The notes under the pieces: generated by a model
Told to the model about the DNA's origin: nothing
Databases searched by the model: none
The model's input: only the letters and a program-made list of their open reading frames with translations
In this document: one piece after another, positions 4,646 to 33,074 of the stretch
Numbering within the stretch: position 1 is the stretch's first letter
Layout: each line of letters starts with the position of its first letter
Source of the DNA: Escherichia coli
Lineage (GTDB): Bacteria; Pseudomonadota; Gammaproteobacteria; Enterobacterales; Enterobacteriaceae
NCBI RefSeq assembly: GCF_024298765.1
Contig: NZ_CP101210.1
DNA: 64,000 nucleotides
Reading direction: 5' to 3' (one strand)
Made by a program: the position numbers and the translations under genes

Positions 4646-4737
4646 TCCTGAAAAAATCGGGCGGTGGGTGCGCGGTGTAAACGGTCACGGAGTCAAACCG
4701 GAACACCGCGCACGCCGCCCGCTGACGGGGTCAGTCG

Positions 4738-5538: not shown

Positions 5539-5583
5539 TTTTTCTCTCCGTTACAGGCGGGCATGATGCCCGCCGTGAGTTGA

Positions 5584-6636: not shown

Positions 6637-6659
6637 AAAAAATTTGCTCCTTTGTCTTA

Positions 6660-7496: not shown

Positions 7497-7650
7497 AGTT
7501 TTTGCCCCTCTGACTGGTTCTTCAGTCATGATGGCAAAGCGTAACAGGCTGATACAAAGGGCTTTTGTTGTAAGAAAACAGTCAGAACAGGGGGTTAAGG
7601 AGAACGGTTTCGCGCGCGGGTAATCTTCCTGTAATTACTCAGGGGGAGCA

Positions 7651-9402: not shown

Positions 9403-10448
9403 TGAGCAGAAAAAATAAAAAAGTGCGCATGAGTTCACGCATTGATCTCGCTGATGCGCTCAGGAAAGAATCATCGCTCAGTGCATTCACATTTGATGGT
9501 CCTTATCGCCTGACCGGGCATGACCTGCTGGACAATATGTACTGTGCTGATAACGGGCGGTGGTATGAAACCCCGGTGGACTGGTACGGTCTGGCAAGAG
9601 CCGCCCGGCAAACGTCCTGGCATCAGTCTGCGCTTTACTTTAAGCGCAATGTATTACTCGGTTGCTACATCCCGCACCCGCTGCTTTCCCGGCAGGATTT
9701 CTCGGCGCTGGCGCTGGACTGGTTTGTGTTCGGTAACGCATTCCTTGAGCTTCGGAGCAATATGCTCGGCGAACCGCTTAAATTACGGCACGCCCTGGCG
9801 AAATACATGCGACGCGGAAGCGATCTTGAATCATGGTGGTATGTGCAGGATGGCAAGGACGCGTTCCAGTTTCGCCCTGGCAAAGTGTGCCACCTGATGA
9901 ATCCGGATATTAACCAGGAAATCTACGGCATGCCGGAATATCTTGGCGCATTACTCTCGGCCAGCCTTTCTCATTCGGCGGACATGTTCAGAAAACTGTA
10001 CTACGACAACGGATCCCACGCCGGGTGCATCATCTACATCGGTGCAGCGCAGGTAAACCGCGAAAGCATGGACTCCCTGAAAGAAACGTTACAGGGTGCG
10101 CGTGGTGGTGGTGCATTTAAAAACGTGCTCATTCATGCGCCCAACGGGGGCAAAGAAGGGGTGCAAATTTTGCCGTTCCAGCAGATCACCGCAAAAGATG
10201 AGTTCATGAATGTTAAGGCGGCATCCCGTGATGATGTGCTGGCTGCGCACCGCGTTCCGCCGCAACTGATGGGGGCGATGCCGGGCGAAAAAAGTGCGTT
10301 TGGTGATGTGGAGAAGGCCGCGCGGGTTTACGCAATTAACGAGCTGATGCCCGTCATGGAGGCCATGAAGCACATCAATGACTGGCTTGGCGAAGAGGTG
10401 ATCCGCTTTAACCCTTACGCACTGTTAGACACCCAGCCCACATCCTGA
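9402..10448 (+). CDS. portal protein (gpQ-like)
   Basis: 348 aa, size and position match P2 gpQ; last morphogenesis gene before the cos/cargo region. Confidence 0.85.
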   Translation: MSRKNKKVRMSSRIDLADALRKESSLSAFTFDGPYRLTGHDLLDNMYCADNGRWYETPVDWYGLARAARQTSWHQSALYFKRNVLLGCYIPHPLLSRQDFSALALDWFVFGNAFLELRSNMLGEPLKLRHALAKYMRRGSDLESWWYVQDGKDAFQFRPGKVCHLMNPDINQEIYGMPEYLGALLSASLSHSADMFRKLYYDNGSHAGCIIYIGAAQVNRESMDSLKETLQGARGGGAFKNVLIHAPNGGKEGVQILPFQQITAKDEFMNVKAASRDDVLAAHRVPPQLMGAMPGEKSAFGDVEKAARVYAINELMPVMEAMKHINDWLGEEVIRFNPYALLDTQPTS

Positions 10449-10872
10449 CGCGCTTCGCTTGTCTGCTGCTTCGCCGGGGCATAAAAAATTTATGCCCCGA
10501 CTCTCCAGCTCCTGTATCAGTCAGATAATTTCACGACGCTTTCCTGCTGATTGCCATCATCGACAGTCAGACTCTTACGCAATCCCACCGCGTTGACTGC
10601 ATGTTCTCGCCGTCTCAGTGCGATTTTGACGGCCTTACCTTTCACCCCATCAAATCAAAAGCCCTCACGTCTTTTTCACGCTCAGCGTGAGAAATACAGC
10701 CATTCTGTTGTGTCGCTGCGACATCGTTCAGGGGATGCTATTTACCCCCTGAAACGCGGGCTGTTCCCCCGTCACCTGCGCGCAGAAAAAATGCGTTTTT
10801 TTGTGCACGCACGGATCCTTGACGGATCCAGCCACCATGCGGGCCGGAAGGGCAAAAAGTCGTTCAAAAAAA

Positions 10873-10899
10873 TTGTGCAAATTTGTGCACTATTGTGCA
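10873..10899 (+). promoter_or_regulatory. three direct TTGTGCA repeats at 10-bp spacing with a nearby TATAGT; candidate operator/promoter of the cargo operon
   Basis: TTGTGCA at about 10873, 10883 and 10893 (a fourth copy near 10801); TATAGT at about 10904; about 80 nt upstream of the cargo ATG. Confidence 0.35.
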
Positions 10900-10978
10900 T
10901 TTGTATAGTGAAAAAAATATAGCAGAAAGTATACTTAGCGCCTTGTGGGCTACGTTAACTTTGCAGGAACATTTGGAA

Positions 10979-12358
10979 ATGAAAAAAATCAATAAAGAAG
11001 ATTCTAAAAGAACCTTTTTACGTGGATGGTTGCGATTTCTTCGTAGCGTTGAGAGAGCTAAGAAAAAAAAGCCTGCGCAAGAGAAAAATGGTAGTCTTCG
11101 TTTTTCCGATGAAACAACTCCTGTCCAAAACCAAGTCGCTACGTTCATTGAAAATATATCGATTATAAAAGAGTATGACTCATCAATTCTTCGTCGTGAC
11201 GCAGAGAAGATATTAATACCTAAATATTTTGACTTATATGACAATCCAGAGAAATCTCTGCTATTTATTAGTGCAGCCACAAAATTAATTGCAAGAGGTA
11301 AATGGAAATCATATATTTTTGATTACAAGAAAAACAAAAAACACTGTCTTGGTCTTGAGTGTCTATTAGGTGTTGCTCTTACAGCAGCAAGGCAAAGTAA
11401 TATAAATTTCAAAGATACGATGATTCAGATTAATGGTATCTACCCTAAAGATGAACAGTATCTTGAAATTATCAGGGATGTCGGGCTTGTAAAAGAGATT
11501 AGTAATGCTGCACCAGGTAAAGTTCTGGACTCTACTGAAGCATCGAAAAAAGCGAATCCGAAGAAACGAATCTTCTCTGCTGATAGTATCGGAAAGGAGA
11601 ATGCTTCTGCCTTTGCCCATGACAGAAAAAATGTCACTGCTGAAAAATTTACCGCATACATAAACGAATGCTTAAATGATCATAATTTAAAACTTGTACA
11701 TGAGGCAGAAAAGCATTTAACTTCCTGCATGGGGGAACTCCTTGATAATGCGGAGCGGCATTGTGGGTTAGAGCAACGCCCACGCTGGTATTTGAGAGGT
11801 TTTGTTAATAATAACGTACGAAACCCCATATGTGAGTTGGCTGTTTTCAATTTTGGGAAAACTATCAGCGAAACTTTTGATAATTTACCTGAGGATCATT
11901 TTTCATTAAGTCAACAAGTTAATCCATACATAAATAAGCATATTAAGAAAAAGGGTATGTTTAAGGAAGGATTAACAACAGTAGCGGCCTTGCAAGGGCG
12001 GGTGAGTTGTAAAAACGAGAAAGAAACTGACAGTTCTGGCACCGGAACAATTGAATTATTGAAGTTATTTCAAGATATGCATGATAATCTTAAAAAAATG
12101 GGAAGAGATATTAAAGGTGGGATAAAAATGACTTTAATATCTGGTAGTACTCATATTAACTTTGATGGATCATATAAATTAAAGCAAAGGTTGGTTAATG
12201 ACGAGGAAAGTGACATTTTTACTTACCCTTTTAATGATGTAGGGCTTGAATCTGAACCGGATCGCAACTATCTTAAGCGTATGAAGGATGCTCGATTTCC
12301 TGGAGTTATGATCAATATTCGTTTTCCTCTACCAGAAAACGCCACCCAGCGAACTTGA
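10979..12358 (+). CDS. cargo gene 1: GHKL-type ATPase / anti-sigma-factor-kinase-like protein, 459 aa from ATG 10979
   Basis: N-box-like ELLDNAERHCG, possible degenerate G1 (FNFGKT) and G2 (SSGTGT) boxes; AT-rich; AGGAA 8 nt before ATG; the track start at 10883 is a TTG. Confidence 0.6.
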   Translation: MKKINKEDSKRTFLRGWLRFLRSVERAKKKKPAQEKNGSLRFSDETTPVQNQVATFIENISIIKEYDSSILRRDAEKILIPKYFDLYDNPEKSLLFISAATKLIARGKWKSYIFDYKKNKKHCLGLECLLGVALTAARQSNINFKDTMIQINGIYPKDEQYLEIIRDVGLVKEISNAAPGKVLDSTEASKKANPKKRIFSADSIGKENASAFAHDRKNVTAEKFTAYINECLNDHNLKLVHEAEKHLTSCMGELLDNAERHCGLEQRPRWYLRGFVNNNVRNPICELAVFNFGKTISETFDNLPEDHFSLSQQVNPYINKHIKKKGMFKEGLTTVAALQGRVSCKNEKETDSSGTGTIELLKLFQDMHDNLKKMGRDIKGGIKMTLISGSTHINFDGSYKLKQRLVNDEESDIFTYPFNDVGLESEPDRNYLKRMKDARFPGVMINIRFPLPENATQRT

Positions 12359-12368
12359 GGACAGGTAC

Positions 12369-12713
12369 ATGAAAATGGCTGACATCACCATAGATTTCAA
12401 TAAGTTAGTAAAAGATAGTAACAAGAAACTTTTTGCTGGACGTTCTAATGGGCGCCAGGCCTATGATTACTTTAATATAGGGAAATTTTGCACAACCAGT
12501 AATGATAGATTATATCTATTGATCCCCAAGGGAATTGTTGTATCAAGCTCATACTTTCTAGGTATGCTTGAAACGGTTTTGCCGAAATTTTCTTCGCCTA
12601 GCGAATTTTATAGTCGCACTGTACTTGATGGTCGTGAATATAAAGAAGGTATGCTTTCTGAATTAGATAGAGCTGTAAGGAGAGGCTTACATAAAAATGT
12701 TCCCTTCTTTTAA
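12369..12713 (+). CDS. cargo gene 2: small STAS-like (anti-sigma-factor-antagonist-like) protein, 114 aa
   Basis: GAGGA 8 nt before ATG, overlapping the stop of gene 1; segment LLIPKGIVVSSSYFLGMLETV recalls the SSSF-type STAS-like signature. Confidence 0.55.
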   Translation: MKMADITIDFNKLVKDSNKKLFAGRSNGRQAYDYFNIGKFCTTSNDRLYLLIPKGIVVSSSYFLGMLETVLPKFSSPSEFYSRTVLDGREYKEGMLSELDRAVRRGLHKNVPFF

Positions 12714-13506
12714 AAATATTTTTCAAATCAAAATGACAGCGCTGTCTGTCATTTTTTTTATATTCCCCGCAGCTTGCTCTGTGACAGATTTTTCCAATAA
12801 AGAAAACATTGAATGTAATGAGTCACTTTATCCAAACACGCCTTTTTATATTTCCGATTCAGGACTTAGTGGTATATCATCACCGTTTTTGTTATCCGGA
12901 AACCCGAATGATGGCTTGATGTTTTGTGAAAAGGCAAACGACACCTTTCATAAGTTATCTCTGGCAAGGGATAACAAAAAAGATTTATTTACTAATTATT
13001 TCAAAGATGTTCCAAATTCCTATGATATATATAATATTGTAAAGGTTCCGGAAAATGGTCCAGAGTGGATTTCTATTGGCATCTCTTTATTTGCTTTAGT
13101 TTCATCCTTTGTTATTCCTTGTGTTCAACATAGAAAAGAACGTAAAGAAGCTATTAATGAAGGGTATTGGGTAAGAGAAGTAATTATGCCTAAAATTAAT
13201 GGGTTGGCATTCGATGTTGTGCAAAGTTTTAAAAACTCCATGGCATTATCAGAAGAGGAGTTTCTTAGTGTATTCAGTAATACTCTTTTACCAAAACTAG
13301 GAGAGTTACGGGATTCATTATATTTGTTTAATAGTTTTCCAGAATTAAATGCAGATATTGAAAATCTAGAAAGTATTTGTGACTCCTTGGAGGAAGAAGT
13401 TTCCAATCATATAGACTCGCCTAATGAAATAAGAATTTCTGATATATCAATGTTTCATTCCAAATTAATACAGAAATTAATTTTACTTCATAAGAAGATA
13501 GGTTGA
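12697..13506 (+). CDS. cargo gene 3: membrane protein, candidate effector (N-terminal signal/anchor, one internal TM, acidic C-terminal domain)
   Basis: Overlaps gene 2 by 17 nt; hydrophobic N-terminus TALSVIFFIFPAAC and TM WISIGISLFALVSSFVIPCV; AT-rich. Confidence 0.6.
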   Translation: MFPSFKNIFQIKMTALSVIFFIFPAACSVTDFSNKENIECNESLYPNTPFYISDSGLSGISSPFLLSGNPNDGLMFCEKANDTFHKLSLARDNKKDLFTNYFKDVPNSYDIYNIVKVPENGPEWISIGISLFALVSSFVIPCVQHRKERKEAINEGYWVREVIMPKINGLAFDVVQSFKNSMALSEEEFLSVFSNTLLPKLGELRDSLYLFNSFPELNADIENLESICDSLEEEVSNHIDSPNEIRISDISMFHSKLIQKLILLHKKIG

Positions 13507-13551
13507 TTTTCAAGGCCTCCTTATTCCTAGGGCGGCCTTAGCTCTATATTT

Positions 13552-16344
13552 CTATCGTGTTCGATGCAATAAACTGATTTTTTTGCGAGCATGTTTAGTG
13601 GTTTCACTGATTCTCTGTGCGTGCTCTGCGTCGCGGATGGCGCGCAGCATGTCAGAAAGTACGGTAACGGGTGTTTTCATGGTGTTCTGGTCTTGCTGAA
13701 GTGTGGATGCCAGGCGTGCGGCGGCTTCAGGGTCTGATGCCTCTAGTTGTTCCAGATAGCTGGCGACCGGGTTATGGCGGATCTCCGTGCTGCTTACGCC
13801 GTGATTACGACTCAGGCGTTGCCAGAGCTGCGTGATTCGGCTGTCCGGGCGGGTATCCTGTTTGCGTACAATTTCAAATCCCTGCGGTGCAATGATGCTG
13901 CCGCCAACGTACAGACTGCCGCCTCGTAACAGGTGCTGCATCTGCTGTTCACCGATATGCAGGCCGAGAGATTCAGCAGACTCCCGCCATTCTTTAGCGA
14001 GTAACTCGTGGTTATCAGGCAAAGGCTGTGGCTGTTTGCGGCTCTGTGTCCAGTTCTGCATTTCATCACTGCTGTTTTTTGCCTGTTTGTCACGCAGCGA
14101 ACGCATCAGTGCCCGGCGTTCGTGCCGTTTCAGTGAGCGCATCCATTCATTCACGTCAACGCCTTCAGGAAGCCGCGGCCACGGTGCTGGCCGTTCTTCC
14201 GGCTGTTCTGTCCCGTTGTTGTCCGTTTCCTGTACACGGGGACAGTTATTGCCACGAGTCCAAGGGGCGGCAGGGCCGCCCTGAAGGTCAAAACCATTTT
14301 CGCGGGCGCTGTCTTCCGTTTCCGGTTTACGTCTTACCAGTTTCCAGTTATCCGGATGCGTGCACACACGGGAGGATTCCCCGATGAGTGGTGACCAGAT
14401 CCCGTAAATCTGTACGCTCTGTTCGCCGTAATCATTCAGCTCATCTGCGAGGTCGTAGGCGGTGCGAATCAGGTAGTCTTTGCGTGGAACAAGTACGCCG
14501 CCCTGTTTTTCAATGTAGGTGGCAAAACACCCGGCATCGGCGGCAGCGAGTACCGCATCCATTGCGTCATCTTTCAGTCGTTGCGGGCCTTCCGGGTTGC
14601 GTGCCATCTGGCTGGCAAGGCGGCGCAGTTCACGCCACACCTGACGGGAGGGGATGCCAAAGAACTGGAACTGGCGGACCCGATGAAGGCGCGCCCAGCC
14701 GATGGCGCGCTCCACACTCTCGGCCATTGATTTTCCGGTTTCGTGGTCAACGCGTGGCTTGCCCGTTTTCGGGTCGATGCCATCCACGGCGCGGCTGTCC
14801 AGGTTCTTTCCGATGTAGGTCGCGATATAGCTGGTTGGTGTGCCTTTTGAGCCGTCGACATACTCCGCCTTAAAGCGCGGAGTAATATCATTGCCCAGCT
14901 CGTGGCGGTCTTCCTGAATGGCAATATCGCGGGTGATGGCCACGATGCTGTCGATTTCTTCCGGATGAGCAAAGACCATCATATGCCAGTGCACGGTGCC
15001 GTCATGGTGAGGCTCCACCGTGCGGATGCCATACCAGCGAAGACCGTCGCGGTTCAGTTTTTTGCGGACCGCCGCAAAAAACGTGTTAACCAGGTAATCG
15101 CTGGAGTCGCGCATGGTGGCCCCGTTCCATTTGGGATTCGGATGACCGTTCTCTGTTGTGGCGTGGTATTTTGACGGGCAGGTGACAGTCAGAAACACCG
15201 CTTTGTCGCCACGGGCTTCGGCCAGAAGTTCCAGCCCCTTCATGGTGGCCATCATTTCTGCCTTACGGTGAACCGGGTTACTTACTCCCGCGTAATACAC
15301 CGTCTCGAGATCAATCGTGAACCCGTCTTCGTTTTCCAGCATGAAACTTTTCAGGAAATCGCGTGTTTTCTCGCGCTGTGCGCGAAACTCGCTTAACGCG
15401 TCCTGGCTCAAATAGGGCGATGTTTTTCTGGAAACCAGACAGGCGGCGCGGAGTTGTTCTTCTCTCCACTCGCAACGTAACAGCCACAGTTTGCGTTTCC
15501 ACCATTCCGCACAGGTCAGGCGAAGGATTGCGCCCGGCAGCAGTTCTGTGTCCGGTTCGTTCCTCCGGTCTTTGTCTGTTGTCAGTGCGTCATAATGCGG
15601 AGGCATGGCGTGCAAGTGTAACGCCATGCGGGCCAGCATCTGATACGCCTTCAGCGTTACATCCATGGTCAGCTCGCCATCGGTCGCGCCAAAACCATCG
15701 CAGAGTTTTTCGAAGGTGCTGCTGAACATCGCCGCCGTCATGGTGGCCAGCGTCTGTATCTGGTGTTTGTTGAGTTGCGGCAGGTAAAGCAAATCGTCCA
15801 GGCGTTCACGTCCGGCAAGGGACCGATAACCCGGTGTCAGCCAACGGCTGTCGGTGCGGTCCAGACGTACGAATATTTTGCGCAGGGTTCCGCGCGCGTA
15901 GCGTTCAGCCTGCCAGCTCTTTTTGCCTTTCTGACGATCGGATTCCTGTTTTTTGCGCAGGAAAGAGAGGTGGCGGCTCAGAGGTTCACGCAGATAAACG
16001 GGAAGCACCTTCAGTGTGGCAAAAGCACGGGCCACCGGGTCTTGTTCTGTTGCCTGACGCTTGCTGATGATGCTTTGTGCCAGCTTTTCACGCTGTCCGG
16101 CTTCCTCAAGGGATGCCATGAGTTTTTTACCCACGGTGGATTGTGCGAAAAAGGCTTCCTCCTTCGCTTCCTGTTCTTTCCGGGCCTTTTTGTCCGCCTC
16201 AAGGTAGTAACGGATGGCGCGTTGCAGCTCGGTTTCAGTTTCCTGCCTGCGCTCCGTAAATCTGTCCGGATCAATGGCTGGCCGTGGTTCATTCCAGCTC
16301 CATGCAAACTCACTCATGGCTGGTATCCCGTCACGCGCTGCCAC
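13552..16344 (-). CDS. replication initiation endonuclease (P2 gpA-like, rolling-circle HUH type)
   Basis: 930 aa with HWHMMVFAH HUH-type motif; position between early genes and cargo as P2 A. Confidence 0.8.
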   Translation of the reverse strand: MAARDGIPAMSEFAWSWNEPRPAIDPDRFTERRQETETELQRAIRYYLEADKKARKEQEAKEEAFFAQSTVGKKLMASLEEAGQREKLAQSIISKRQATEQDPVARAFATLKVLPVYLREPLSRHLSFLRKKQESDRQKGKKSWQAERYARGTLRKIFVRLDRTDSRWLTPGYRSLAGRERLDDLLYLPQLNKHQIQTLATMTAAMFSSTFEKLCDGFGATDGELTMDVTLKAYQMLARMALHLHAMPPHYDALTTDKDRRNEPDTELLPGAILRLTCAEWWKRKLWLLRCEWREEQLRAACLVSRKTSPYLSQDALSEFRAQREKTRDFLKSFMLENEDGFTIDLETVYYAGVSNPVHRKAEMMATMKGLELLAEARGDKAVFLTVTCPSKYHATTENGHPNPKWNGATMRDSSDYLVNTFFAAVRKKLNRDGLRWYGIRTVEPHHDGTVHWHMMVFAHPEEIDSIVAITRDIAIQEDRHELGNDITPRFKAEYVDGSKGTPTSYIATYIGKNLDSRAVDGIDPKTGKPRVDHETGKSMAESVERAIGWARLHRVRQFQFFGIPSRQVWRELRRLASQMARNPEGPQRLKDDAMDAVLAAADAGCFATYIEKQGGVLVPRKDYLIRTAYDLADELNDYGEQSVQIYGIWSPLIGESSRVCTHPDNWKLVRRKPETEDSARENGFDLQGGPAAPWTRGNNCPRVQETDNNGTEQPEERPAPWPRLPEGVDVNEWMRSLKRHERRALMRSLRDKQAKNSSDEMQNWTQSRKQPQPLPDNHELLAKEWRESAESLGLHIGEQQMQHLLRGGSLYVGGSIIAPQGFEIVRKQDTRPDSRITQLWQRLSRNHGVSSTEIRHNPVASYLEQLEASDPEAAARLASTLQQDQNTMKTPVTVLSDMLRAIRDAEHAQRISETTKHARKKISLLHRTR

Positions 16345-16703
16345 TCCTGCGAGAAGAGGGTGGAAAGGCGGTTAAATTCAGCGGTGTATTCACTCAGCGA
16401 GGCACACCCGCCAGCAGTGTGATGCGCCAGCATTGCCGCAAATACGGAGGTCGGGGAGTCGTAATACGCCAGCAGTGATTCGCCATGCGGTGTCAGGCAG
16501 CGCAACGCCAGCCCGTGTGGTGTTAAGTCCACGCGGTAGCAGTCGTCTACTGTGAAATAAAGGGTGTCTGCATTCTCCGGTTTTGTAGTGCGTGCTCTGT
16601 TGTCACGACTACGGATGTAGAGATCAAATAATCCCTGAAGAACGGGAGCCAGACGGGTGTCCTGTGTGCGCACCCATCTTGTGAAGTCATGAGCGTCAAT
16701 CAT
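16314..16703 (-). CDS. hypothetical phage early protein
   Basis: 129-aa ORF immediately upstream of A on the same strand, overlapping its start. Confidence 0.5.
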   Translation of the reverse strand: MIDAHDFTRWVRTQDTRLAPVLQGLFDLYIRSRDNRARTTKPENADTLYFTVDDCYRVDLTPHGLALRCLTPHGESLLAYYDSPTSVFAAMLAHHTAGGCASLSEYTAEFNRLSTLFSQEWQRVTGYQP

Positions 16704-16811
16704 GCTGCAATTCTCTCTACTAAGGATGTGCGAAGGCTTCCTGCCAAAAAACTCAGAAGCGGTCGGTTACAGGAATTGGCGTTCTACGAGTAGTTATTGC
16801 TGGCTTGAGGT

Positions 16812-17030
16812 TCATTTCTGTTTAATTCCGTGCATGCTGTAGAAGAAATCAAAAGTGCTATCTATGCGTATCATGAGCTCACGCTGTATCGCTTCTGGTG
16901 TTTCTGGTTCACCTGGCGAGCCAACTCCCGCGAAGAAATCACCGATCTCGCTTTTAATAAGTGCCTTTAGCGTTGCTGAGGAATTCAGGTGTGTGCGGTG
17001 ATGTTTGCGAGTGATTCTTCTCCTGCTCAT
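16812..17030 (-). CDS. hypothetical phage early protein
   Basis: 72-aa ORF in the early operon; overlaps the upstream ORF stop by 4 nt. Confidence 0.45.
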   Translation of the reverse strand: MSRRRITRKHHRTHLNSSATLKALIKSEIGDFFAGVGSPGEPETPEAIQRELMIRIDSTFDFFYSMHGIKQK

Positions 17031-17230
17031 TTGCGTGGATCCTGTACCTGTCGGATAAGATTCACCCGCGCCACATTAGTGGCGCAGAAGTAAGTACCGT
17101 CAGTGAGATAGATGTGGTGTGCATCCTTTTCTGAGCGGTGTTTGTCGATTGTGGTAATCAGGCGTTCGTCGACTTCGTATTCACGTCCTCTGGAAGTGAA
17201 ACGAACGACAGGAAAATGCTTAATTGCCAT
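17027..17230 (-). CDS. hypothetical phage early protein
   Basis: 67-aa ORF in the early operon. Confidence 0.5.
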   Translation of the reverse strand: MAIKHFPVVRFTSRGREYEVDERLITTIDKHRSEKDAHHIYLTDGTYFCATNVARVNLIRQVQDPRK

Positions 17231-17317
17231 TACACCTCCTGGGCGTGTGCGAATACCTCCGCGAATGCGGATTGTTTTTACATTTTCTTATTTAACCTAG
17301 GGTTTTTATTTGCGCTG

Positions 17318-17431
17318 TTATTCGCCAGTGAAAAAGCGGTCAATCTTTTTTACTGAACGAATAATTCGCATAATCCCAATGGCGCAGACCACCGAAATAA
17401 TCAGAACAAGCCATGAGATAAATATACTCAT
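17318..17431 (-). CDS. small hydrophobic membrane peptide (37 aa)
   Basis: ATG at 17431 overlaps the stop of the upstream ORF (ATGA); MSIFISWLVLIISVVCAIGIMRIIRSVKKIDRFFTGE is a single TM helix with a basic tail. Confidence 0.35.
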   Translation of the reverse strand: MSIFISWLVLIISVVCAIGIMRIIRSVKKIDRFFTGE

Positions 17432-17670
17432 GCAATATTCCCCAGCTTATACGGTTCAATATGCTCCCCGCATTCTGCGGCACAGATCAGCTCGGAAAGT
17501 TCGTTAAGTGCATCCAGATCATCAGCGTAAAAAGCCACGTCATACAGACTCCGGATTGCCCTGGTTAATGAGTCACGGGCTGCACGTTCAGCATGAGTAC
17601 CTGATGCACTTAAGCGAAAATAAAAACGCTCAAGTGCTTTGTTTATGAGAGTCTTATATTCTTTGCCCAT
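17428..17670 (-). CDS. hypothetical phage early protein
   Basis: 80-aa ORF in the early operon. Confidence 0.5.
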   Translation of the reverse strand: MGKEYKTLINKALERFYFRLSASGTHAERAARDSLTRAIRSLYDVAFYADDLDALNELSELICAAECGEHIEPYKLGNIA

Positions 17671-17682
17671 CGCAACGCCCTT

Positions 17683-17959
17683 TAATCTGCTTTCTGAATT
17701 TCAGCTTCTGAATCCATGCAGATAATTTCGATATAGGGTTCATCGCCATTAACCTGACGAGCTTTTTCAGCTTCGTTAATTATTTCGCGAACGGTCTGGT
17801 ACGGAAGTTCTACTGTCAGGCGCGTACCGTTCAGATAAACGTAGGTAGCTGCATTTTTTCAGATGGAACTACTCCGTCAATAGCTGATGCGCGTAATAAC
17901 AGTTCACCGCGAAAATCAATAAAGCGGATAAATACACCTTGTGCATGGTCTTTAGTCAT
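17683..17959 (-). pseudogene. small early gene (about 92 aa if repaired) interrupted by a 1-nt frameshift in an A6/T6 run
   Basis: ATG at about 17959 gives 41 codons then stop; an out-of-frame continuation with no start codon runs to TAA at about 17683; adding one A in the homopolymer near 17854-17859 joins them. Confidence 0.4.
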
Positions 17960-17969
17960 AAAGCACCTG

Positions 17970-18320
17970 TTATAAATCAGCCTGTTTAATAAAACTTTGC
18001 CCGCGAAGCAAACGATCGACTGTGCGCAGTGCTTCGTACAATGTAAAATCCTGCCCGAACTGATTATCGCCGTTGCTTAATGCAAAAATGCGGTTTCCGG
18101 TAAACGGATTGCGTGAGCATCTGTGAACCACTATTCCAGCTTTCTCAATCAGCCAGGTGTGTTCGCCGATTTGTTTTACAGCGTGCCCATCTGGTGTTGC
18201 GTGCGTCTCGTTCAGGTTATAGCGATTGTTACTACGTGATGCACTGGTAGCGACGTGGTGTATATGGCGTTCTACGCCATTACGAAATTTGGAGTATGGA
18301 TTATTAGCGTGTTTTTTCAT
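17970..18320 (-). CDS. hypothetical phage early protein
   Basis: 116-aa ORF in the early operon downstream of the cox-like gene. Confidence 0.5.
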   Translation of the reverse strand: MKKHANNPYSKFRNGVERHIHHVATSASRSNNRYNLNETHATPDGHAVKQIGEHTWLIEKAGIVVHRCSRNPFTGNRIFALSNGDNQFGQDFTLYEALRTVDRLLRGQSFIKQADL

Positions 18321-18341
18321 GATGATGCTCTGTTCATTGTT

Positions 18342-18545
18342 TTAGCTGTTAGCCAAAGCGTCTTTTAACATCGCCACAAGGTTTACTTCAGGCTTTTCCA
18401 TTTTGGCACGTTTGGGGCGGATAATAATTCGACCGTCAGCCAACATCTTTTTGCATGTATTAAGAGGGATACCTGTTATCTCTGCATATTTCTGCAGGGA
18501 TACATAGGGGGCATTCACATTGATATTGATGGTTATACCTGACAT
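18342..18545 (-). CDS. Cox-like small DNA-binding protein (excisionase/early regulator)
   Basis: 67 aa; YVSLQKYAEITGIPLNTCKKMLADGRI resembles the Cox-type helix-turn-helix pattern; position in the early operon. Confidence 0.55.
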   Translation of the reverse strand: MSGITININVNAPYVSLQKYAEITGIPLNTCKKMLADGRIIIRPKRAKMEKPEVNLVAMLKDALANS

Positions 18546-18561
18546 CCCACTAGCCTCCTGA

Positions 18562-18768
18562 TCAGGAAGATTTGTTTTGTTCTTTCTGGGTTAGCTCTAG
18601 GCCGCGAAGGAAGATCATGCGCGCCATGTTAGAGGATGAGCGTTGTTCTTTAGTTGCCATTTCATCAATGACGGCTCGCTCTTCGAGGGACAGCCGAAGT
18701 GCCAGTCTTGGACCTGTGGCGGTGTTACGCGGAATGCGTGATCTGGTATCGTGAAGAACTTGTTTCAT
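18562..18768 (-). CDS. small ribbon-helix-helix-like regulator, first gene of the early operon
   Basis: 68 aa with RLALRLSLEERAVIDEMA; divergent from the repressor gene. Confidence 0.45.
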   Translation of the reverse strand: MKQVLHDTRSRIPRNTATGPRLALRLSLEERAVIDEMATKEQRSSSNMARMIFLRGLELTQKEQNKSS

Positions 18769-18843
18769 AGTGGTATATTGTGATCATCTAATAGCTCGTG
18801 AAATCATTTTGGTATCAAAAAAGATACCTGTCAAGGTTTTTGT
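18769..18843. promoter_or_regulatory. lysis-lysogeny switch region with divergent early and repressor promoters
   Basis: 75-bp AT-rich gap between divergently transcribed early operon and repressor gene, as in P2/186. Confidence 0.5.
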
Positions 18844-19248
18844 ATGAAAAATGATATTGGTCAGCGGTTGCGTGAGGAAAGGGAAAGATTGGGGCTTAGT
18901 CAAGTTGCTATGAGCGAAATTGGTGGAGTCAAAAAGCTAACTCAGCTTAGATATGAGAAAGGAGATAGCTTTCCTGATGCTGCGTATTTGGCAGCGCTGT
19001 CTCGTTTTGGCCTTGATGTTCAGTATGTTGTGTTGGGAATTCACTCACCTGAAACTTATAACGATGATGAGCAGGAGTTGATTACTCGCTTTCGAGCAGC
19101 TTCGTTAGATGTAAAAAACGCGGTGATCGGGGCTTTAAAAAGTGCGGGCAGTGAAAAGGAAACTCAGCCATCAGGGCGTGAGTTAAATATTTCTGGTGGT
19201 AATAACCGTATCGCTGGTCGTGACTATAACGAAACTAAGGGTAGGTGA
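18844..19248 (+). CDS. immunity repressor (CI/C-like, HTH XRE family)
   Basis: 134 aa; N-terminal LREERERLGLSQVAMSEIGGVKKLTQLRYEKG helix-turn-helix; divergent from the early operon. Confidence 0.75.
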   Translation: MKNDIGQRLREERERLGLSQVAMSEIGGVKKLTQLRYEKGDSFPDAAYLAALSRFGLDVQYVVLGIHSPETYNDDEQELITRFRAASLDVKNAVIGALKSAGSEKETQPSGRELNISGGNNRIAGRDYNETKGR

Positions 19249-19263
19249 TAGTAGGGAGGTGAC

Positions 19264-19914
19264 ATGGCCGTCAACTCAAACGGTTCAAACAATCGCGTTG
19301 CTGGGCGTGATTTTCACGAAAAGAATATTCAGATAGAGCGATATGATGGTTCTCATACCGTCAATATCGCAATCCCTTCGAATAATGATGATGACGCTCG
19401 CCCTTTGCTTAAGGCACAGCGTAAGGAGCTAAATAGCTTGGTTGCTGCTATTGCAGAAGCTAGCAATACTGAAGCGTTTATTATTTGGCAAAAAGTACAT
19501 GCGGAGATTGGTGTAGCTGGTATTGATGATATGACAATAAATCAATATAAAACAGCGGAGAGTTTTCTGCATGCAATGCTTGAGCGATGTAAAGATCATG
19601 ATGCCTGTAAGACTCTTGTAAGTTTATTACTACGTAACAGTGAAGACTGTGGACTTCGACAAAAACTTCTGCGGTATTGCCATATCAATTTCGGTACAGG
19701 ACGTTTAAACGATCTTACTCGTTCTCAGTTACAGTCTGCATTGTCGTGGTTAGAGCAACAATCGGTATCAAGCCACACAGAGAATTCGACCTTACCAGAA
19801 GTCCGCCTTCGTGCTTCAGAATTAATCCGATTTTATCCAAAAGAAATAATATTCTTTATCTGCGTAGGGGTTTTGGTAGGCGGAGCCATTTCTAGGATGT
19901 TTTTTAATTTGTAA
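19264..19914 (+). CDS. moron protein with C-terminal membrane anchor, unknown function
   Basis: 216 aa; GGGAGG 6 nt before ATG; AT-rich; C-terminal TM IIFFICVGVLVGGAI; lies between repressor and integrase. Confidence 0.55.
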   Translation: MAVNSNGSNNRVAGRDFHEKNIQIERYDGSHTVNIAIPSNNDDDARPLLKAQRKELNSLVAAIAEASNTEAFIIWQKVHAEIGVAGIDDMTINQYKTAESFLHAMLERCKDHDACKTLVSLLLRNSEDCGLRQKLLRYCHINFGTGRLNDLTRSQLQSALSWLEQQSVSSHTENSTLPEVRLRASELIRFYPKEIIFFICVGVLVGGAISRMFFNL

Positions 19915-19943
19915 TCTTACTTGAGCTAAATTGAGGCAATGAC

Positions 19944-20291
19944 ATGAAAGTAAAAAAGGTTCAACTATTAGTTGCTTTTTTATCTATGTTTTCTTTTTCC
20001 GCCGTCGCAATGCCTTTTAAAACTATTGAACGTGAGAGTTTCAATGGAGTATGGCCATTTAATACAGATGAGGTTCAATTGCAGTGTCTTGATGGTAATC
20101 CTTATGTGATGAATTTTGACGATAATAAGTTATATGCGCTTACAGGTTTGGCTCGAATAAAAGGTAAAACATTTGGTGCGTTACCGTTAGATAACAATAA
20201 TCCATTTTGGCTAGATAATGATGCCGCCCCTGGGTTAAAAAAGAATCTGGGGGACGTCACTAAGGCTGCATTTGATTTATGTGATAAGTAA
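19944..20291 (+). CDS. secreted/periplasmic moron protein, unknown function
   Basis: 115 aa with signal peptide MKVKKVQLLVAFLSMFSFSAVA and two cysteines; AT-rich. Confidence 0.55.
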   Translation: MKVKKVQLLVAFLSMFSFSAVAMPFKTIERESFNGVWPFNTDEVQLQCLDGNPYVMNFDDNKLYALTGLARIKGKTFGALPLDNNNPFWLDNDAAPGLKKNLGDVTKAAFDLCDK

Positions 20292-20296
20292 CAAAG

Positions 20297-21298
20297 ATGT
20301 CGGTTCGTAAGATTCCATCAGGTAAATGGCTTTGCGAATGTTATCCCTACGGAGCATCGGGAAAACGCATTCGTAAACAGTTTGCGACAAAAAGTGAGGC
20401 GCTCTCTTATGAGCGCCGTTTAATGAATAGTAGAGTTGGAGACGAGTTTCAAGATGGTTCTGGTCCTCGTCTTTCTGAGTTGATTGCTCGTTGGTTTGAG
20501 ATGTACGGCAAAACCTTGTCCTCTGGTGCAGAGCGCAAAGTCAAACTTGAGGCGATTTGTTCTAGGCTGGGAGATCCATTTGCTTCTCAGTTTGACAAAA
20601 ATATGTTTGCTACTTATCGGGAAAGAAGGCTATCAGGAGAATGGAATCCCAAGGGGAAGAAAAAACTTAGTGAAGCAACCGTTAATCGCGAGCAGTCATA
20701 TCTACATGCTGTTTTTGCCGAACTGAAGCGCCTTGGGGAGTGGTCTGGTGAAAACCCCCTGACTGGAATTCGCAAGTTTCGTGAGGAAGAAAAGGAGCTG
20801 GCGTTTCTGTATGTAGATGAGATTGAACGCCTTTTGATTGCGTGTGATGAGTCACGGAATAAAGATTTGGGGGTTGTTGTCCGTATTGGGCTTGCGACTG
20901 GTGCTCGGTGGAGTGAAGCAGAAGGATTAAAGCAATCTCAAGTACTGCCCGGTCGAATCACATTTGTTAAAACTAAAGGAAAGAAGAACCGCACTGTACC
21001 GATTTCACCTCAATTGCAGGCTATGCTTCCTAAAAAACGAGGAGCGCTATTTTCACCATGTTATGAGGCTTTTGACGCTGCAATTAAGAGAGCGAAGATA
21101 GAGCTCCCTGATGGGCAATTAACTCATGTGCTACGTCACACGTTTGCTAGTCATTTTATGATGCGGGGCGGAAATATTCTTGTGTTGCAAAAAATACTGG
21201 GGCATAGCGATATAAAAATGACTATGCGTTATGCGCATTTTGCTCCGGGTCATTTAGAGGCTGCTGTTGAATTAAACCCTTTTGACAATAGAGGGTAA
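20297..21298 (+). CDS. int: tyrosine-type site-specific integrase
   Basis: 333 aa; C-terminal HVLRHTFASH...ILGHSDIKMTMRYAH catalytic R-H-R-Y pattern; next to the att/tRNA fragment. Confidence 0.9.
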   Translation: MSVRKIPSGKWLCECYPYGASGKRIRKQFATKSEALSYERRLMNSRVGDEFQDGSGPRLSELIARWFEMYGKTLSSGAERKVKLEAICSRLGDPFASQFDKNMFATYRERRLSGEWNPKGKKKLSEATVNREQSYLHAVFAELKRLGEWSGENPLTGIRKFREEEKELAFLYVDEIERLLIACDESRNKDLGVVVRIGLATGARWSEAEGLKQSQVLPGRITFVKTKGKKNRTVPISPQLQAMLPKKRGALFSPCYEAFDAAIKRAKIELPDGQLTHVLRHTFASHFMMRGGNILVLQKILGHSDIKMTMRYAHFAPGHLEAAVELNPFDNRG

Positions 21299-21404
21299 AA
21301 AGTGGCGATAAAAAGTGACAATAGATTCAAATGGCGTCGTATAGAGCTATTTGCAAAGTTAATAAAATCATAAGGTTATGATTTATAAATGGTGGTTGAT
21401 AGTT

Positions 21405-21459
21405 TTTAAAATCCCTCGGCGTTCGCGCTGTGCGGGTTCAAGTCCCGCTCCGGGTACCA
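21405..21459 (+). other. prophage attachment-site core: 55-nt duplicate of the tRNA-Leu (leuZ-type, anticodon TAA) 3' end, not an intact tRNA
   Basis: TTTAAAATCCCTCGGCGTTCGCGCTGTGCGGGTTCAAGTCCCGCTCCGGGTACCA matches the remembered 3' portion of E. coli leuZ; the upstream 5' half does not fold as an acceptor stem. Confidence 0.7.
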
Positions 21460-21502
21460 TGGGAAAGATAAGAATAAAATCAAAGCAATAAGCAGTGTCG
21501 TG

Positions 21503-21527
21503 AAACCACCTTCGGGTGGTTTTTTTG
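21503..21527 (+). terminator. rho-independent terminator (native tRNA operon terminator)
   Basis: ACCACC-TTCG-GGTGGT hairpin followed by a T7 run. Confidence 0.65.
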
Positions 21528-21654
21528 TGCCTGCAACTTGTCGTTACACCCTCCTTAATTTTTAATCACCGGCAAAGCCACTCAAAAAGTATCTCTGATA
21601 CGGACCGGCATGTAAGATAGGTGCTGGCGAGTTGAGATCCACAAGGAAAAGCGT

Positions 21655-22320
21655 ATGAAAACGGGACCGTTAAACGAAAGTGAGTTGGAATGGCTGGACG
21701 ATATTCTGACCAAATACAACACTGACCACGCCATTCTTGATGTGGCGGAGCTGGACGGTTTATTGACGGCGGTGTTGAGTTCTCCGCAAGAGATTGAACC
21801 GGCACAGTGGCTGGTTGCCGTGTGGGGTGGGGCTGACTATGTGCCGCGCTGGGCGTCAGAGAAAGAGATGACGCGCTTTATGAACCTGGCTTTTCAACAT
21901 ATGGCCGATACCGCAGAGCGTCTGAACGAATTCCCGGAGCAGTTTGAGCCGTTATTCGGCTTGCGAGAAGTCGATGGCAGCGAGCTGACGATTGTTGAGG
22001 AGTGGTGCTTTGGCTATATGCGGGGCGTGGCACTTTCTGACTGGTCAACGTTGCCCGATTCGTTAAAACCAGCGCTGGGGGCGATTGCGCTGCACGGTAC
22101 TGAGGAAAACTTCGAGCGGGTTGAGAAGATGTCGCCAGAAGCGTTTGAAGAGAGCGTAGATGCCATTCGACTGGCGGCGCTTGATTTACATGCATACTGG
22201 ATGGCGCATCCGCAGGAAAAAGCTGTTCAGCAACCGATCAAAGCAGAAGAGAAACCGGGTCGTAACGATCCTTGCCCGTGCGGCAGTGGTAAGAAATTTA
22301 AGCAGTGCTGCCTGCATTAA
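21655..22320 (+). CDS. yecA: YecA (UPF0149 family protein with C-terminal SEC-C zinc motif)
   Basis: 221 aa ending [13 protein letters not shown]; conserved gene order. Confidence 0.85.
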
Positions 22321-22329
22321 GAGGTCAAA

Positions 22330-22360
22330 TTGGGTGTCAGCGTTAATTCTGGCACCCAAT
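22330..22360. terminator. hairpin between convergent yecA and tyrP (possible bidirectional terminator)
   Basis: TTGGGTGTCAG ... CTGGCACCCAA inverted repeat; no clear T-run. Confidence 0.35.
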
Positions 22361-22369
22361 AAGATCTAA

Positions 22370-23581
22370 TCACCCCACTTCTGGTAACAACCCTGCCGCA
22401 ATCAAAAATTGCACGCCAATCACAGCAATACCACAGAGAAACACCACCACCAGCGCCGGACGACCACCTTTGACCCGGTAACCCGCCTGAGGATTGTGCT
22501 TTCTGCTTTGCCAGGTCAACAGCGAAGGGATAATCAATGCCAGTACCGCCAGCGCCACACCGGCGTAACCCAGCGCCATCACAAATCCTCGTGGATAAAA
22601 CAGTGCAAACGCCAACGGCGGCAGAAAGGTAATTGCACCAGTTTGCAATCTTCCACCAACGGTATTTGAACGCTGAAACAAATCTGCCAGATAATCAAAT
22701 AAGCCTAACGCTACGCCGAGGAAGGACGTGGCGAGGGCTAAATCAGCAAATAAATGCACTGCCAGCTCAACATGCGGAGAGGCCACCATTTCGCGTAACG
22801 CCTGTAACAGCCCGTTTAATCCGGCATGATTAGCCAGCAATCCCATAAAGGTTGTTGAATCAATGCTGCCAAGGGTCGCCAGCTGCCAGAAAATATATGC
22901 CACCAGGGGGATCGCACTACCGATTATAAACACCCAGCGTAGCTTACGAATGTTGCCATCCATATAGCTGACAATACTCGGCACGCTACCGTGAAAACCA
23001 AACGACGTAAAAATCACCGGGATTGCAGACAGTGCCAGTCCCTGTTGCAACGGCAGGGTTAAAAGATTCACTTTGTGAATATGCGGTAGCAGCAATACCA
23101 GCATCACCACCAGAAAAATAATTTTGGCGCTGAACAGAAAACGGTTAAATAAATCGACCAGCGATGTCCCGACACAAACCACGCCACCGGCAACAAAAGT
23201 GAACAACAGCACGCCAGCGGTTGCCGACATTGAAATACCTGTCCAGTCGCTGATGCTGGAGGCCAACAATTCACCGGCACCGCTGATGTATGCCGCAGTC
23301 AGAGCATACATTAAGAACATCATACTGAAGCCCGTCAGCCACTGACCGTAGCGTCCCAGATAGCGTTTTGCCAGCGTGCCCAGACCGGTATCTGCCGGGA
23401 CATGCTGGTACACCTCCAGTAGTAATAGCGCCGTGTAGCACATCAACGCCCAAAGCCCAATCAACAAGATTAACGTGACGCTAAAACCAACACCTGCCGC
23501 AGCCAGCGGCATTGCCAGCATGCCTGCGCCAATTGTGGTTCCCGCCACGATAAAAACACTTCCCAGAGTTCTGTTTTTCAC
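22370..23581 (-). CDS. tyrP: tyrosine-specific transport protein
   Basis: 403-aa polytopic membrane protein; sequence and context as E. coli tyrP. Confidence 0.9.
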
Positions 23582-23771
23582 GCTTTCTTCTGTCCTGACG
23601 ATCTTTATGAGTGATATCTGCGGCGCAGGTTAAGGCATAACGGCTGATTCGTCAAACCGGCGTTACATATGGTGTAAATATAAATGTACAATAAAAAGCG
23701 TTCAGTTCTGCGCTGGCGCAAAGTCTTCATAAGCGGCAATCGCTACGCTAGGCTTTTTTTGAGGAGGAACG

Positions 23772-24011
23772 ATGGACTCTATTCACGGTCATGAAGTGTT
23801 AAATATGATGATTGAATCAGGCGAGCAATATACGCATGCCAGTCTGGAAGCAGCAATTAAAGCGCGTTTTGGTGAACAGGCACGTTTTCACACCTGCTCG
23901 GCAGAAGGGATGACAGCGGGAGAGCTGGTAGCGTTTCTGGCAGCAAAAGGCAAATTTATACCTTCGGAAGAAGGTTTTTCGACCGATCAGAGTAAGATTT
24001 GCCGTCACTGA
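23772..24011 (+). CDS. yecH: YecH (small uncharacterised protein)
   Basis: 79-aa ORF; position between tyrP and ftnA. Confidence 0.75.
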   Translation: MDSIHGHEVLNMMIESGEQYTHASLEAAIKARFGEQARFHTCSAEGMTAGELVAFLAAKGKFIPSEEGFSTDQSKICRH

Positions 24012-24018
24012 TTTGAAA

Positions 24019-24042
24019 CGGCGGCAGTAAACCTGCCGCCGG
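24019..24042. terminator. hairpin between convergent yecH and ftnA
   Basis: CGGCGGCAG-loop-CTGCCGCCG inverted repeat. Confidence 0.4.
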
Positions 24043-24048
24043 AGAACA

Positions 24049-24546
24049 TTAGTTTTGTGTGTCGAGGGTAGAGAGTTCTTTGTCGATAAAATACAAACCT
24101 TCGCCGCTTTTGCCTGCCAGACTTAATTTATCAATAATCGATTTGAACAGTTTCTCTTCTTCATGCTGCTCAGAAACATACCATTGCAGGAAATTAAATG
24201 TTGGGTAGTCCTGATTGGTCATTGCAGCATGAGCCAGTTCGTTAATTTTTTGCGTGATTAATTGTTCGTGTTTATAGGTTTCCTGGAATAATTCATCAAG
24301 TGAGGAATATTCAGCAAACGGAGATTCAACGGTATTAATACGCGGTAAGTTGCCGGTATCAGTCAGATAATCAAACAGACGCTGCATATGCGTCATCTCT
24401 TCCTGGGCGTGACGGCGCAGGAACGCGGCAGCACCTTCGAAGGTATGATAGCTGCACCAGGCGCTCATTTGCTGATAAAGCAGTGAAGAGTACAGTTCCA
24501 GGTTCATCTGCTCATTAAGTTTTTCAATCATTTCTGGTTTCAGCAT
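24049..24546 (-). CDS. ftnA: ferritin (non-haem iron storage)
   Basis: Starts [21 protein letters not shown] (165 aa) at internal Met of the track ORF. Confidence 0.9.
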
Positions 24547-24717
24547 GATAGTGCTCCACAAAGGTTATATTTGTTGCTGTGGCGTCACTATAATTTGTTA
24601 TTTTATTATTTGCAAAAGGTAAAATATAAACTTCATTTATTAAAAATACGAATGGGAATAAAACGCATTACCGCTATTTATTTAATCAGCGAAGATCCCC
24701 CTCGCTGATTAAAACAT

Positions 24718-25041
24718 TTAGAGAAAGACAGGGAAGGCGGAATGATGGCACTGATATGACAAAGTGAATTCCGTATTCAAACATAAGGAACCCGCAAAGA
24801 GGCTACAGTTGCCTACTGGCTGACCAAAGGGGATAGCGTGGGTATAGCCTTCCTGCTGGCATGCGCGATCGGCGATCCCGCGACTGACATAACGATCGGT
24901 ATAGGCATGCTGCAAAAAAGCCTGGTCATAAACCAACCGTACAATACCTGTTGCCGCGTCAACTTCGCTCACATGGGCCTGGCGAGTAACCGTACACCCC
25001 GCCAGCGTTATTAATGAAAGAGTCAGAATCAGAAGTCTCAT
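24718..25041 (-). CDS. yecR: YecR lipoprotein
   Basis: 107 aa with lipoprotein signal LITLAGC. Confidence 0.8.
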   Translation of the reverse strand: MRLLILTLSLITLAGCTVTRQAHVSEVDAATGIVRLVYDQAFLQHAYTDRYVSRGIADRACQQEGYTHAIPFGQPVGNCSLFAGSLCLNTEFTLSYQCHHSAFPVFL

Positions 25042-25303
25042 GGTCCAGCCAGAAGAGTAAAAGAAAGCACTATTTTACGCGTTACAGCGCTGCGACAATG
25101 GCCGGAAAAGACGCCTGGCAGGCGCTATTTCTCGCCATCTGTAGGTGTCAGAAATGGGGTAGCTGCTTTTTGATTATCATTTTTATAACATTAAAGGGGT
25201 ATTTATGTGATTTACATCACATAAAGATTGATTTTTGTGATGGTTGTCATATTATAAGCGCAAAGACAATAACACATGTATAACAAATGGTCGGAGTGCC
25301 GCG

Positions 25304-25390
25304 ATGAAACTGCGCAAAATCCTGAAAAGTATGTTCAATAACTATTGCAAGACGTTCAAAGACGTACCGCCAGGCAATATGTTCCGATAA
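25304..25390 (+). CDS. azuC: small protein AzuC (28 aa)
   Basis: ATG...TAA encodes MKLRKILKSMFNNYCKTFKDVPPGNMFR; followed by a strong terminator. Confidence 0.75.
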   Translation: MKLRKILKSMFNNYCKTFKDVPPGNMFR

Positions 25391-25391
25391 C

Positions 25392-25419
25392 AAAAAACCT
25401 GCTCCGGCAGGTTTTTTTG
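25392..25419 (+). terminator. rho-independent terminator after azuC
   Basis: AAAAAACCTGC-TCCG-GCAGGTTTTTTT hairpin with T-run. Confidence 0.7.
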
Positions 25420-25504
25420 TGTCCTGATGACGGTGGATGTGACTATCGCTGAAGATGTGAAGCCGCTACTATAACGGCTTTCAAAATGCTATCAGGAGTT
25501 TACG

Positions 25505-25756
25505 ATGTCCCAGCCGCTGAATGCCGATCAGGAACTGGTTTCTGATGTGGTTGCTTGCCAGTTGGTTATCAAACAAATTCTGGATGTTCTCGATGTGATC
25601 GCACCCGTTGAAGTTCGCGAAAAAATGTCCAGCCAGCTAAAGAATATCGACTTTACTAACCATCCCGCCGCCGCAGACCCGGTCACCATGCGGGCAATCC
25701 AAAAAGCCATCGCGTTGATTGAACTCAAGTTTACCCCACAGGGCGAATCCCATTAA
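25505..25756 (+). CDS. yecJ: YecJ (small uncharacterised protein)
   Basis: 83-aa ORF; conserved position. Confidence 0.75.
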
Positions 25757-25833
25757 AAAACCGCTGCTTCAAAAAAATGAGGCAGCGGTTTCTCAAAAAC
25801 TTCATCGGCGCAATGCATTAGCGCCGATGATGA

Positions 25834-26337
25834 TCAATGTAGCTGATGCGACACGACATTCAGAACATGTTGGTCGGTCTGCACAGGGCACATACCCGCA
25901 AGTTTCGCACTGCGCACTTCATCAAGAATGGTTTGCAGCAACAGGCCATCATGCTGCTGTTCTTTTTCCAGATCGCGCAGGAAATTGACGGTTGAATCAT
26001 CATTCAGTTCTTTCGCTTCATCGGCTAACTGTGCCAACGTACTAGAACGTTGCTCGTATTCTTCCATCGTTTTTTGGAACAGTTCTTCCAGAGAGTTCAG
26101 TTTTTCACCGGGAACATCAATGGCTTTAACGATGGGGGTAGCGCCGACACTCTTCATAAAGTTAAACATGCGCATCATTTGGGTCACATTACTCTGTGCC
26201 TGGGCGCGAAGGAAAGTGGCGGTGCCGTTCAGACTCTGTTCAGAACACCAGTTACTCAGGTGAAGGTAGAGATTGGATGCGTAAAACTCGCGGTTCATTT
26301 GAGAGTTGAGTTTGAGAAGCATTCCAGCGGTTGCCAT
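25834..26337 (-). CDS. ftnB: ferritin-like protein FtnB
   Basis: 167 aa starting [21 protein letters not shown]. Confidence 0.85.
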
Positions 26338-27133
26338 ACCTAATATCCTTATATCCAGAAGTGGAGAGGTGCAAGATAAATCAAAACACCATAATTACTG
26401 TTTGCAGAATAATTCCTTTCTGCCGGTCCGAAATGTGATCGTGGAGTCAATTCTGACGATGATCTGAAATAAGAATAACGTCTGAACGGGTATAAGAAAA
26501 TGCTTAAATCATCAAGTTTATATATTTTTACATTTCATTGATGAAATCAATGTAACTGCAATGAATTTTAATGATAGTGCTTTTTGTATCTTGTTGATAT
26601 TAATCGATTAATTTGAATTCATGATGAAGTGATGGTTTTATAAAACGTTTTTTCATTTTTGCGAGATGGCTCTCATTATACGTGTTCTGTTAATTAATGA
26701 GCACAGTGATAATTAATGGCGAAATGAATGACGCACATTTTCCACATCTTTGAGTTGTGGTTATTACACCATTGCAAAAACTCAACGCCAGGTAATGCGG
26801 CCTATTGACTGGTTAAAAAGAAGACATCCCGCATGGGTACCAAAGACAACAAGGACTTCCAGGCTAATCTTATGGATTATTCTGCTGTGCACTCGATAAT
26901 TTGTCTGACAAATTCGCTTTTCCTTATGTCTTTTCCCGCTAAATTTATGCACGTTCTCACTGTAATTCTGCGATGTGATATTGCTCTCCTATGGAGAATT
27001 AATTTCTCGCTAAAACTATGTCAACACAGTCACTTATCTTTTAGTTAAAAGGTAATGCTTTGTTTTCCGATTAATTTAACGAATGTCATTCGTTTTTGCC
27101 CTACACAAAACGACACTAAAGCTGGAGAGAACC

Positions 27134-28123: not shown

Positions 28124-28192
28124 TTTGCCGGAAAGATTCCCCTCTGCATGATGCAGAGGGGGTGTGAACGACCAGTGATTCACGGAGACGTT

Positions 28193-29707: not shown

Positions 29708-29721
29708 GTAAGGAGAGTATG

Positions 29722-33074
<3,353 letters not shown>

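Follow-up and report, generated by a model that had tools for sequence, protein, structure and literature searches.

Two short reading frames on the minus strand of an Escherichia coli prophage lie out of register with each other and meet at a run of six adenines. This raises the question of whether they are the parts of one broken gene and, if they are, whether the break is a true mutation, a sequencing error or a site at which expression slips back into frame. We followed it up in a stretch of 64,000 nucleotides (the window), in which the frames belong to the early operon of a P88-like prophage (Xuanwuvirus, P2 family) situated beside yecA in the E. coli chromosome.

Two reading frames of one gene

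Reading the minus strand together with the ORF list gives a first frame that begins with ATG at 17959, encodes MTKDHAQGVFIRFIDFRGELLLRASAIDGVVPSEKMQLPTFI and ends at a TGA (17833..17831). It has 42 codons (Table 1), not the 41 counted in the initial annotation, which had also described the second frame as a start-less continuation running to a TAA at about 17683. That frame, in the -1 register, is open from 17858 (KNAATYVYLNGTRL...EIQKAD) and does end at a TAA, the coordinate having been off by one base. The ORF listing of the window contains no ATG, GTG or TTG upstream of Met82 in this frame, in line with the earlier description, and the remnant therefore cannot be translated independently. 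The homopolymer had been located near 17854-17859, which is exactly where it lies, and the prediction that one added A would fuse the frames to about 92 amino acids was borne out by in silico repair, as insertion of one A into the run gives a single ORF of 92 amino acids. The downstream frame of the window copy is otherwise undecayed and without further damage, from which we take the lesion to be young.

Table 1. Features of the frameshifted locus and its surroundings in the window
Feature	Position	Strand	Description
Whole frameshifted gene	17682..17959	-	278 nt (intact relatives: 279 nt, 92 codons)
Truncated reading frame	17831..17959	-	42 codons: 35 native residues, 7 aberrant residues (MQLPTFI) and TGA
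A6 homopolymer, site of the 1-base deletion	17854..17859	-	A7 in intact relatives
Out-of-frame (-1) C-terminal remnant	17682..17858	-	58 codons and TAA (17684..17682)
DUF4761 protein, upstream neighbour	17970..18320	-	116 aa; PF15958, E = 3e-64; synteny kept in relatives
DUF4754 protein, downstream neighbour	17428..17670	-	80 aa; PF15946, E = 2e-54
Promoter-like site	18806..18834	-	TTGACA-17-CAAAAT; consensus match only
Helix-turn-helix repressor gene	18844..19248	+	Divergent from the promoter-like site
Replication gene A	16344..13552	-	Beyond the DUF4754 gene and more small genes

The repaired product matches the family phrog_3800 over profile positions 1-95 of 95 (E = 8.9e-59), is 100% identical to WP_000158977.1, which is annotated in near-identical prophages, and is 82-95% identical to the orthologues of related phages in protein alignments. 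A single CDS of 279-288 bp occupies the locus in phages vB_EcoM-569R5, P88, Entero_P88(23) and P88_4B11. All related phages have an intact gene of 92-95 amino acids, and more than 360 finished E. coli genomes are likewise intact, with A7. DNA alignment gives the tract as A6 in the window, A7 in the intact relatives and A8 in P88; that of P88_4B11 is A5, in a differing codon context. The context of A7 in the intact relatives is GAA AAA AAT (Glu34-Lys35-Asn36). The initial annotation had suggested this comparison with orthologues, allowing that related phages might encode two separate genes here; on inspection the related phages are intact with A7 (A8 in P88), and each has one CDS. The idea that two separate genes abut by chance, for which the existence of two open frames is the sole support, is of negligible probability, given that the downstream frame has no start before Met82, that every relative carries one CDS and that a single HMM family and a single predicted domain cover both frames. 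It is refuted by the one-CDS relatives, the DNA alignment, the orthologue identity and the full-length match to phrog_3800, and the last three uphold the original proposal of a single early-operon gene broken by a 1-base frameshift.

The copy in the window sits between the genes for the DUF4761 and DUF4754 proteins, as in P88-like phages. It lacks the uninterrupted frame of 92-95 codons of phrog_3800, having A6 and a stop after 42 codons, and homology to the intact family continues in the other frame across a single indel, which makes it a frameshifted pseudogene in the sense of PGAP. We conclude that it is a pseudogene allele of the phrog_3800/P88 gp05 family. P88 gp05 (SF19_gp05, YP_009113048.1) is the same gene in the same early-operon slot and is 82% identical to the repaired product; compared with it and with WP_000158977.1, the window copy has A6 instead of A7 or A8 and so encodes 42 residues only. 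A HMMER search that took in 1.84 billion representatives gave only 22 matches; the repeat-rich matches P0145-P0147 were judged spurious. Distant full-length homologues (30-60% identity) have motifs conserved on both sides of the break. A literature search on this gene, DUF4761 and DUF4754 found nothing.

Predicted effect on the product

An AlphaFold2 model of the repaired protein (pLDDT 81.5, pTM 0.73) is a single compact domain. Its first five strands span residues 8-15, 18-23, 27-32, 39-43 and 46-50; these are followed by a long helix (54-70), a sixth strand (76-82) and a short C-terminal helix (84-89). In the model, the frame changes after residue 35, in the loop that joins β3 to β4. More than half of the modelled domain is thus missing from the 42-residue product, which should be non-functional, judging from the model, because only strands β1-β3 of the compact domain are kept.

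Alleles of the tract in public data

The exact 42-residue product is already public (P0001, STK29608.1), with 22 contigs from 10 samples or more that encode it, and in each of the sister 42-residue alleles P0003, P0004 and P0008 this tract is likewise A6. A6 is present on at least five local haplotypes, and two full-gene haplotypes exist in both the A6 and the A7 state. In silico repair of every A6 allele, that of the window included, gives a clean 92-residue ORF. Since all A6 alleles can be repaired cleanly and two haplotypes occur in both states, the A6 events appear to be recent and recurrent, as expected from homopolymer slippage. Other tract lengths are also found in public data, namely A5 (P0077), A8 (P0121 and P0123) and A9 of the P88 type (P0130).

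Exact matches were counted over 5,426 finished RefSeq E. coli genomes. The haplotype of the window was found only as A7 (16 exact matches, none to A6), as was the ST131-type haplotype (230 and none), and the P0004-type haplotype gave 121 exact matches to A7 and 2 to A6. Over all haplotypes this amounts to 2 exact A6 versus 367 exact A7, so that the OFF state makes up about 0.5% of finished genomes, and the draft and Logan collections are far richer in 42-residue alleles. In the two finished A6 genomes, JNE151685 and ES4, the lesion lies in different prophages at different integration sites. RefSeq/PGAP lists both copies (QUE29_RS10455 in JNE151685 and RG991_RS11945 in ES4) as pseudogenes of 278 nt with the same 1-base loss and the label "frameshifted". 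Their haplotype has AAC after the run, whereas the window has AAT, and the ES4 prophage is integrated elsewhere, at pheL, and differs in its immunity region. The lesions of the window and of these two genomes are therefore taken to be independent events, on the basis of haplotype in both cases and also of site and immunity region for ES4.

Some homologues in public data are broken elsewhere. In P0076, P0091, P0097, P0114, P0068 and P0070 the frameshift lies closer to the 3' end, around codons 60-75, and the reading frame of such copies continues into "...MAMNPISKLFVWIQKLK.RKQIKGRCDGQRI". Public copies of the gene thus have breaks at more than a single position, whether these are real or technical.

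True deletion or base-calling error

Alignment of the window with the finished genome of strain 22AR0750 covered 57.2 kb, in which the sole indel is that at 17859; identity over the host flanks is 99.98-99.99%. The aligned 57.2 kb holds 89 homopolymers of at least 6 nt (the A6 run included), 17 of which are at least 7 nt long. Two contigs from other runs (L011 and L012) show 100% identity with the window over the locus, and a third (L008) has 1 mismatch in 6.1 kb. The runs whose contigs have the identical allele include SRR31598935, SRR10083233 and SRR18346039. Counted per locus, A6 is the only indel in L008, L010, L011, L012 and L017; a caveat is that in clean contigs of this kind, 1-6 kb long, the ancestral A7 is the longest homopolymer. 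Other contigs have 4-10 single-base homopolymer deletions per 3.1 kb (L019-L025) or, in the Logan collection, 2-3 such deletions per 1.3-2 kb (L014-L016), and the A6 in both of these groups is clearly a base-calling artefact. The artefacts of long-read-only assembly (L019-L025, P0003) resemble the window in having the same tract and the same 42-residue "protein", but they carry 4-10 homopolymer deletions per 3 kb where the window has one in 57 kb.

We consider it likely that the A6 of the window is a genuine 1-base deletion and an ordinary null allele of a non-essential early gene, a reading favoured because the indel is the single one in 57.2 kb and because the identical allele is found in L011 and L012, which come from other runs. 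That the genome truly has A7, with an intact gene and an isolated base-calling or assembly error in the window, is unlikely, even though the tract is a proven error hotspot at which Mb-scale whole-genome sequences (L019-L025) and L014-L016 pair A6 with other homopolymer deletions. The rarity of A6 in finished RefSeq genomes compared with draft and Logan data agrees with such an error, as does the fact that none of the 16 finished genomes of the window haplotype carries it. Against such an error, the window shows no other indel in the aligned 57.2 kb despite its 89 runs of at least 6 nt, 17 of them of at least 7 nt, and the same allele recurs on the same background in independent runs without other indels. 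Among the three options that had been offered at the outset, an inactivating mutation is thus favoured, and a sequencing error is less likely here, yet it is the cause in many public copies.

The homopolymer deletions in the error-rich assemblies also affect the surroundings of the tract. In the GenBank whole-genome contigs with the prefixes JBRXB..., JBDIFR... and CATKVI... (L019-L025) and in L014-L016, neighbouring genes are altered by deletions, and the DUF4754 protein is called at 116-124 amino acids instead of 80. Such deletions seed artefactual short proteins into public protein clusters.

Recoding and phase variation

The third option, slippage-prone expression, would mean that the break is bypassed by -1 ribosomal frameshifting or by transcriptional slippage on the A run. 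The site does resemble that of E. coli dnaX (A AAA AAG) in having an A-rich run of Lys codons, in needing a -1 shift on a Lys AAA codon, tRNA-Lys being known as slippery, and in having a Shine-Dalgarno-like GGAG 12 nt upstream of the run, a spacing within the range that stimulates -1 shifts in dnaX. The GGAG is, however, a 4-mer inside conserved Asp-Gly-Val codons, and the zero frame (TCT GAA AAA ATG) has no in-phase X XXY YYZ heptamer, so that only single P-site slippage could take place; tandem re-pairing would place tRNA-Glu on UGA or tRNA-Met on AAU. No stimulatory RNA structure was found downstream of the run, where the next 84 nt (17853..17770) fold no better than shuffled sequences (minimum free energy -11.5 kcal/mol, shuffle mean -15.4, z = +1.29). 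Efficient slippage by E. coli RNA polymerase takes a run of about 9 or more, and the A6 run is too short for this. The homologues are in frame and there is therefore nothing conserved to bypass; all annotated phage orthologues lack the out-of-frame arrangement. Unlike dnaX-type programmed sites, then, the window has its heptamer out of phase, no downstream structure and a break that is not conserved, and on these grounds a programmed -1 frameshift was rejected and the suggestion of slippage-prone expression is left unsupported. A bypass of the break that would still yield full-length protein, whether programmed or through significant leakiness, seems highly improbable to us, although low-level P-site slippage of tRNA-Lys may occur.

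A related proposal is that A7 acts as a recurrent mutational switch in P88-like prophages, with an OFF state that is repeatedly selected, or whose effect is relieved in part by -1 slippage at the Lys codon; we regard this as very unlikely. Its stricter form makes the tract a contingency (phase-variable) switch and has selection in lysogens favour the OFF state (A6), for instance if the early gene carries a cost or furthers induction; this deserves hardly any credence. Public data include tracts both shorter and longer than A7 (A5, A6, A8 and A9), and A6 arose on several haplotypes and in different prophages, which would suit such a switch, but many of the length variants are sequencing artefacts, phase-variable repeats are as a rule longer than 7 nt, P88_4B11 with its A5 shows that the tract is not conserved, and the OFF state is as rare in finished genomes as stated above. 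A control T7 run in the terminase gene gave no T6 versus 21 T7, numbers too few for a comparison of rates. If the switch reading were true, tract length would tune the expression of an early protein.

Proposed course of events and significance

Returning to a genuine deletion as the preferred reading, we picture the ancestral state as one 92-codon accessory gene in the early operon of a P88-like prophage. Its coding A7 (GAA AAA AAT) would have lost one A, most probably through strand slippage in DNA replication, after which translation would depart from the native frame following Lys35 and stop 7 codons on, while the C-terminal 57 codons would not be translated on their own. The outcome would be a young, lineage-restricted null allele of a dispensable gene; the slippage origin, the loss of function and the dispensability are what we infer from the comparisons above. 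P2 has small early ORFs that are non-essential, and by analogy this gene, too, is probably dispensable. The other genes of the prophage in the window are of normal length in comparison with near-identical prophages, and the prophage may be viable despite the lesion if the gene is indeed dispensable. The ATG of the DUF4754 gene follows the ancestral stop by 11 nt and the premature stop by 160 nt, and the longer gap between stop and ATG could possibly exert polarity on the downstream genes.

The lesion is of an ordinary sort, a frameshift pseudogene allele for which RefSeq has annotated counterparts, and is as such already known. It has little biological weight, being one more null allele of an uncharacterised and probably dispensable early gene, and its practical value is cautionary, as the same homopolymer appears to be both a site of genuine mutation and a hotspot of base-calling error. 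Public protein collections hold hundreds of copies of the artefactual or pseudogene-derived 42-residue "protein" (P0001, P0003 and P0004), and the locus is best treated by annotation pipelines as one 92-codon gene. Should a function be found for the gene, natural A6 lysogens would be ready-made knock-outs.

Prophage context

The broken gene lies inside the early operon, upstream of replication gene A. Judging from its match to the consensus, the site at 18806..18834 probably serves the operon as early promoter, and small early genes lie between this site and the DUF4761 gene. On the other side of the repressor gene come the integrase gene and then yecA, the host flank being E. coli sequence. 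The 68-amino-acid ORF in the cox/apl position (18562..18768, minus strand) has no match to Pfam Phage_Cox at E ≤ 0.1. A second promoter-like match (17853..17880, minus strand; TTGACG-16-AAAAAT with an upstream TG) uses the A run as its -10 element, and tract length would alter its geometry; it is probably due to chance, as the scan gave 2 sites versus 3.8 in shuffled sequences. Two cargo genes, a 216-amino-acid ORF and a DUF2511 gene, lie between the repressor and integrase genes (19264..20291, plus strand). The former is Flk_N-like in precomputed tables but had no match at E ≤ 0.001 here.

The interval between gene A and the portal gene is a known variable cargo site of P2-like phages. In the window it contains three ORFs of 491, 114 and 269 amino acids (10883..13506, plus strand), none with a Pfam or PADLOC match, which may form a cargo or defence module that is as yet uncharacterised; in close relatives the slot is taken up instead by genes for ParM and a partition protein and by an Ea22-like gene. 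At the adjoining 3' end of gene A (13552..13593, minus strand), homology to relatives ends at 13593, 41 nt before the stop, and the gene has 930 codons (from the first GTG) versus 946 in relatives. This loss of homology points to a mosaic junction inside the end of the replication gene. Relative to 22AR0750 (L005 and L036; host side 18550..59888, prophage side 1..18553), the host flanks of the window differ by 6 SNPs in 42 kb and the prophage by 0.6% (early region) to 1.6% (late region), with 10899..13593 wholly replaced. A prophage this divergent in near-isogenic hosts points to recombination or replacement of the prophage while the attachment site stayed the same. In 22AR0750 itself, the cox region carries an inserted ISKpn26, and gene A is frameshifted.
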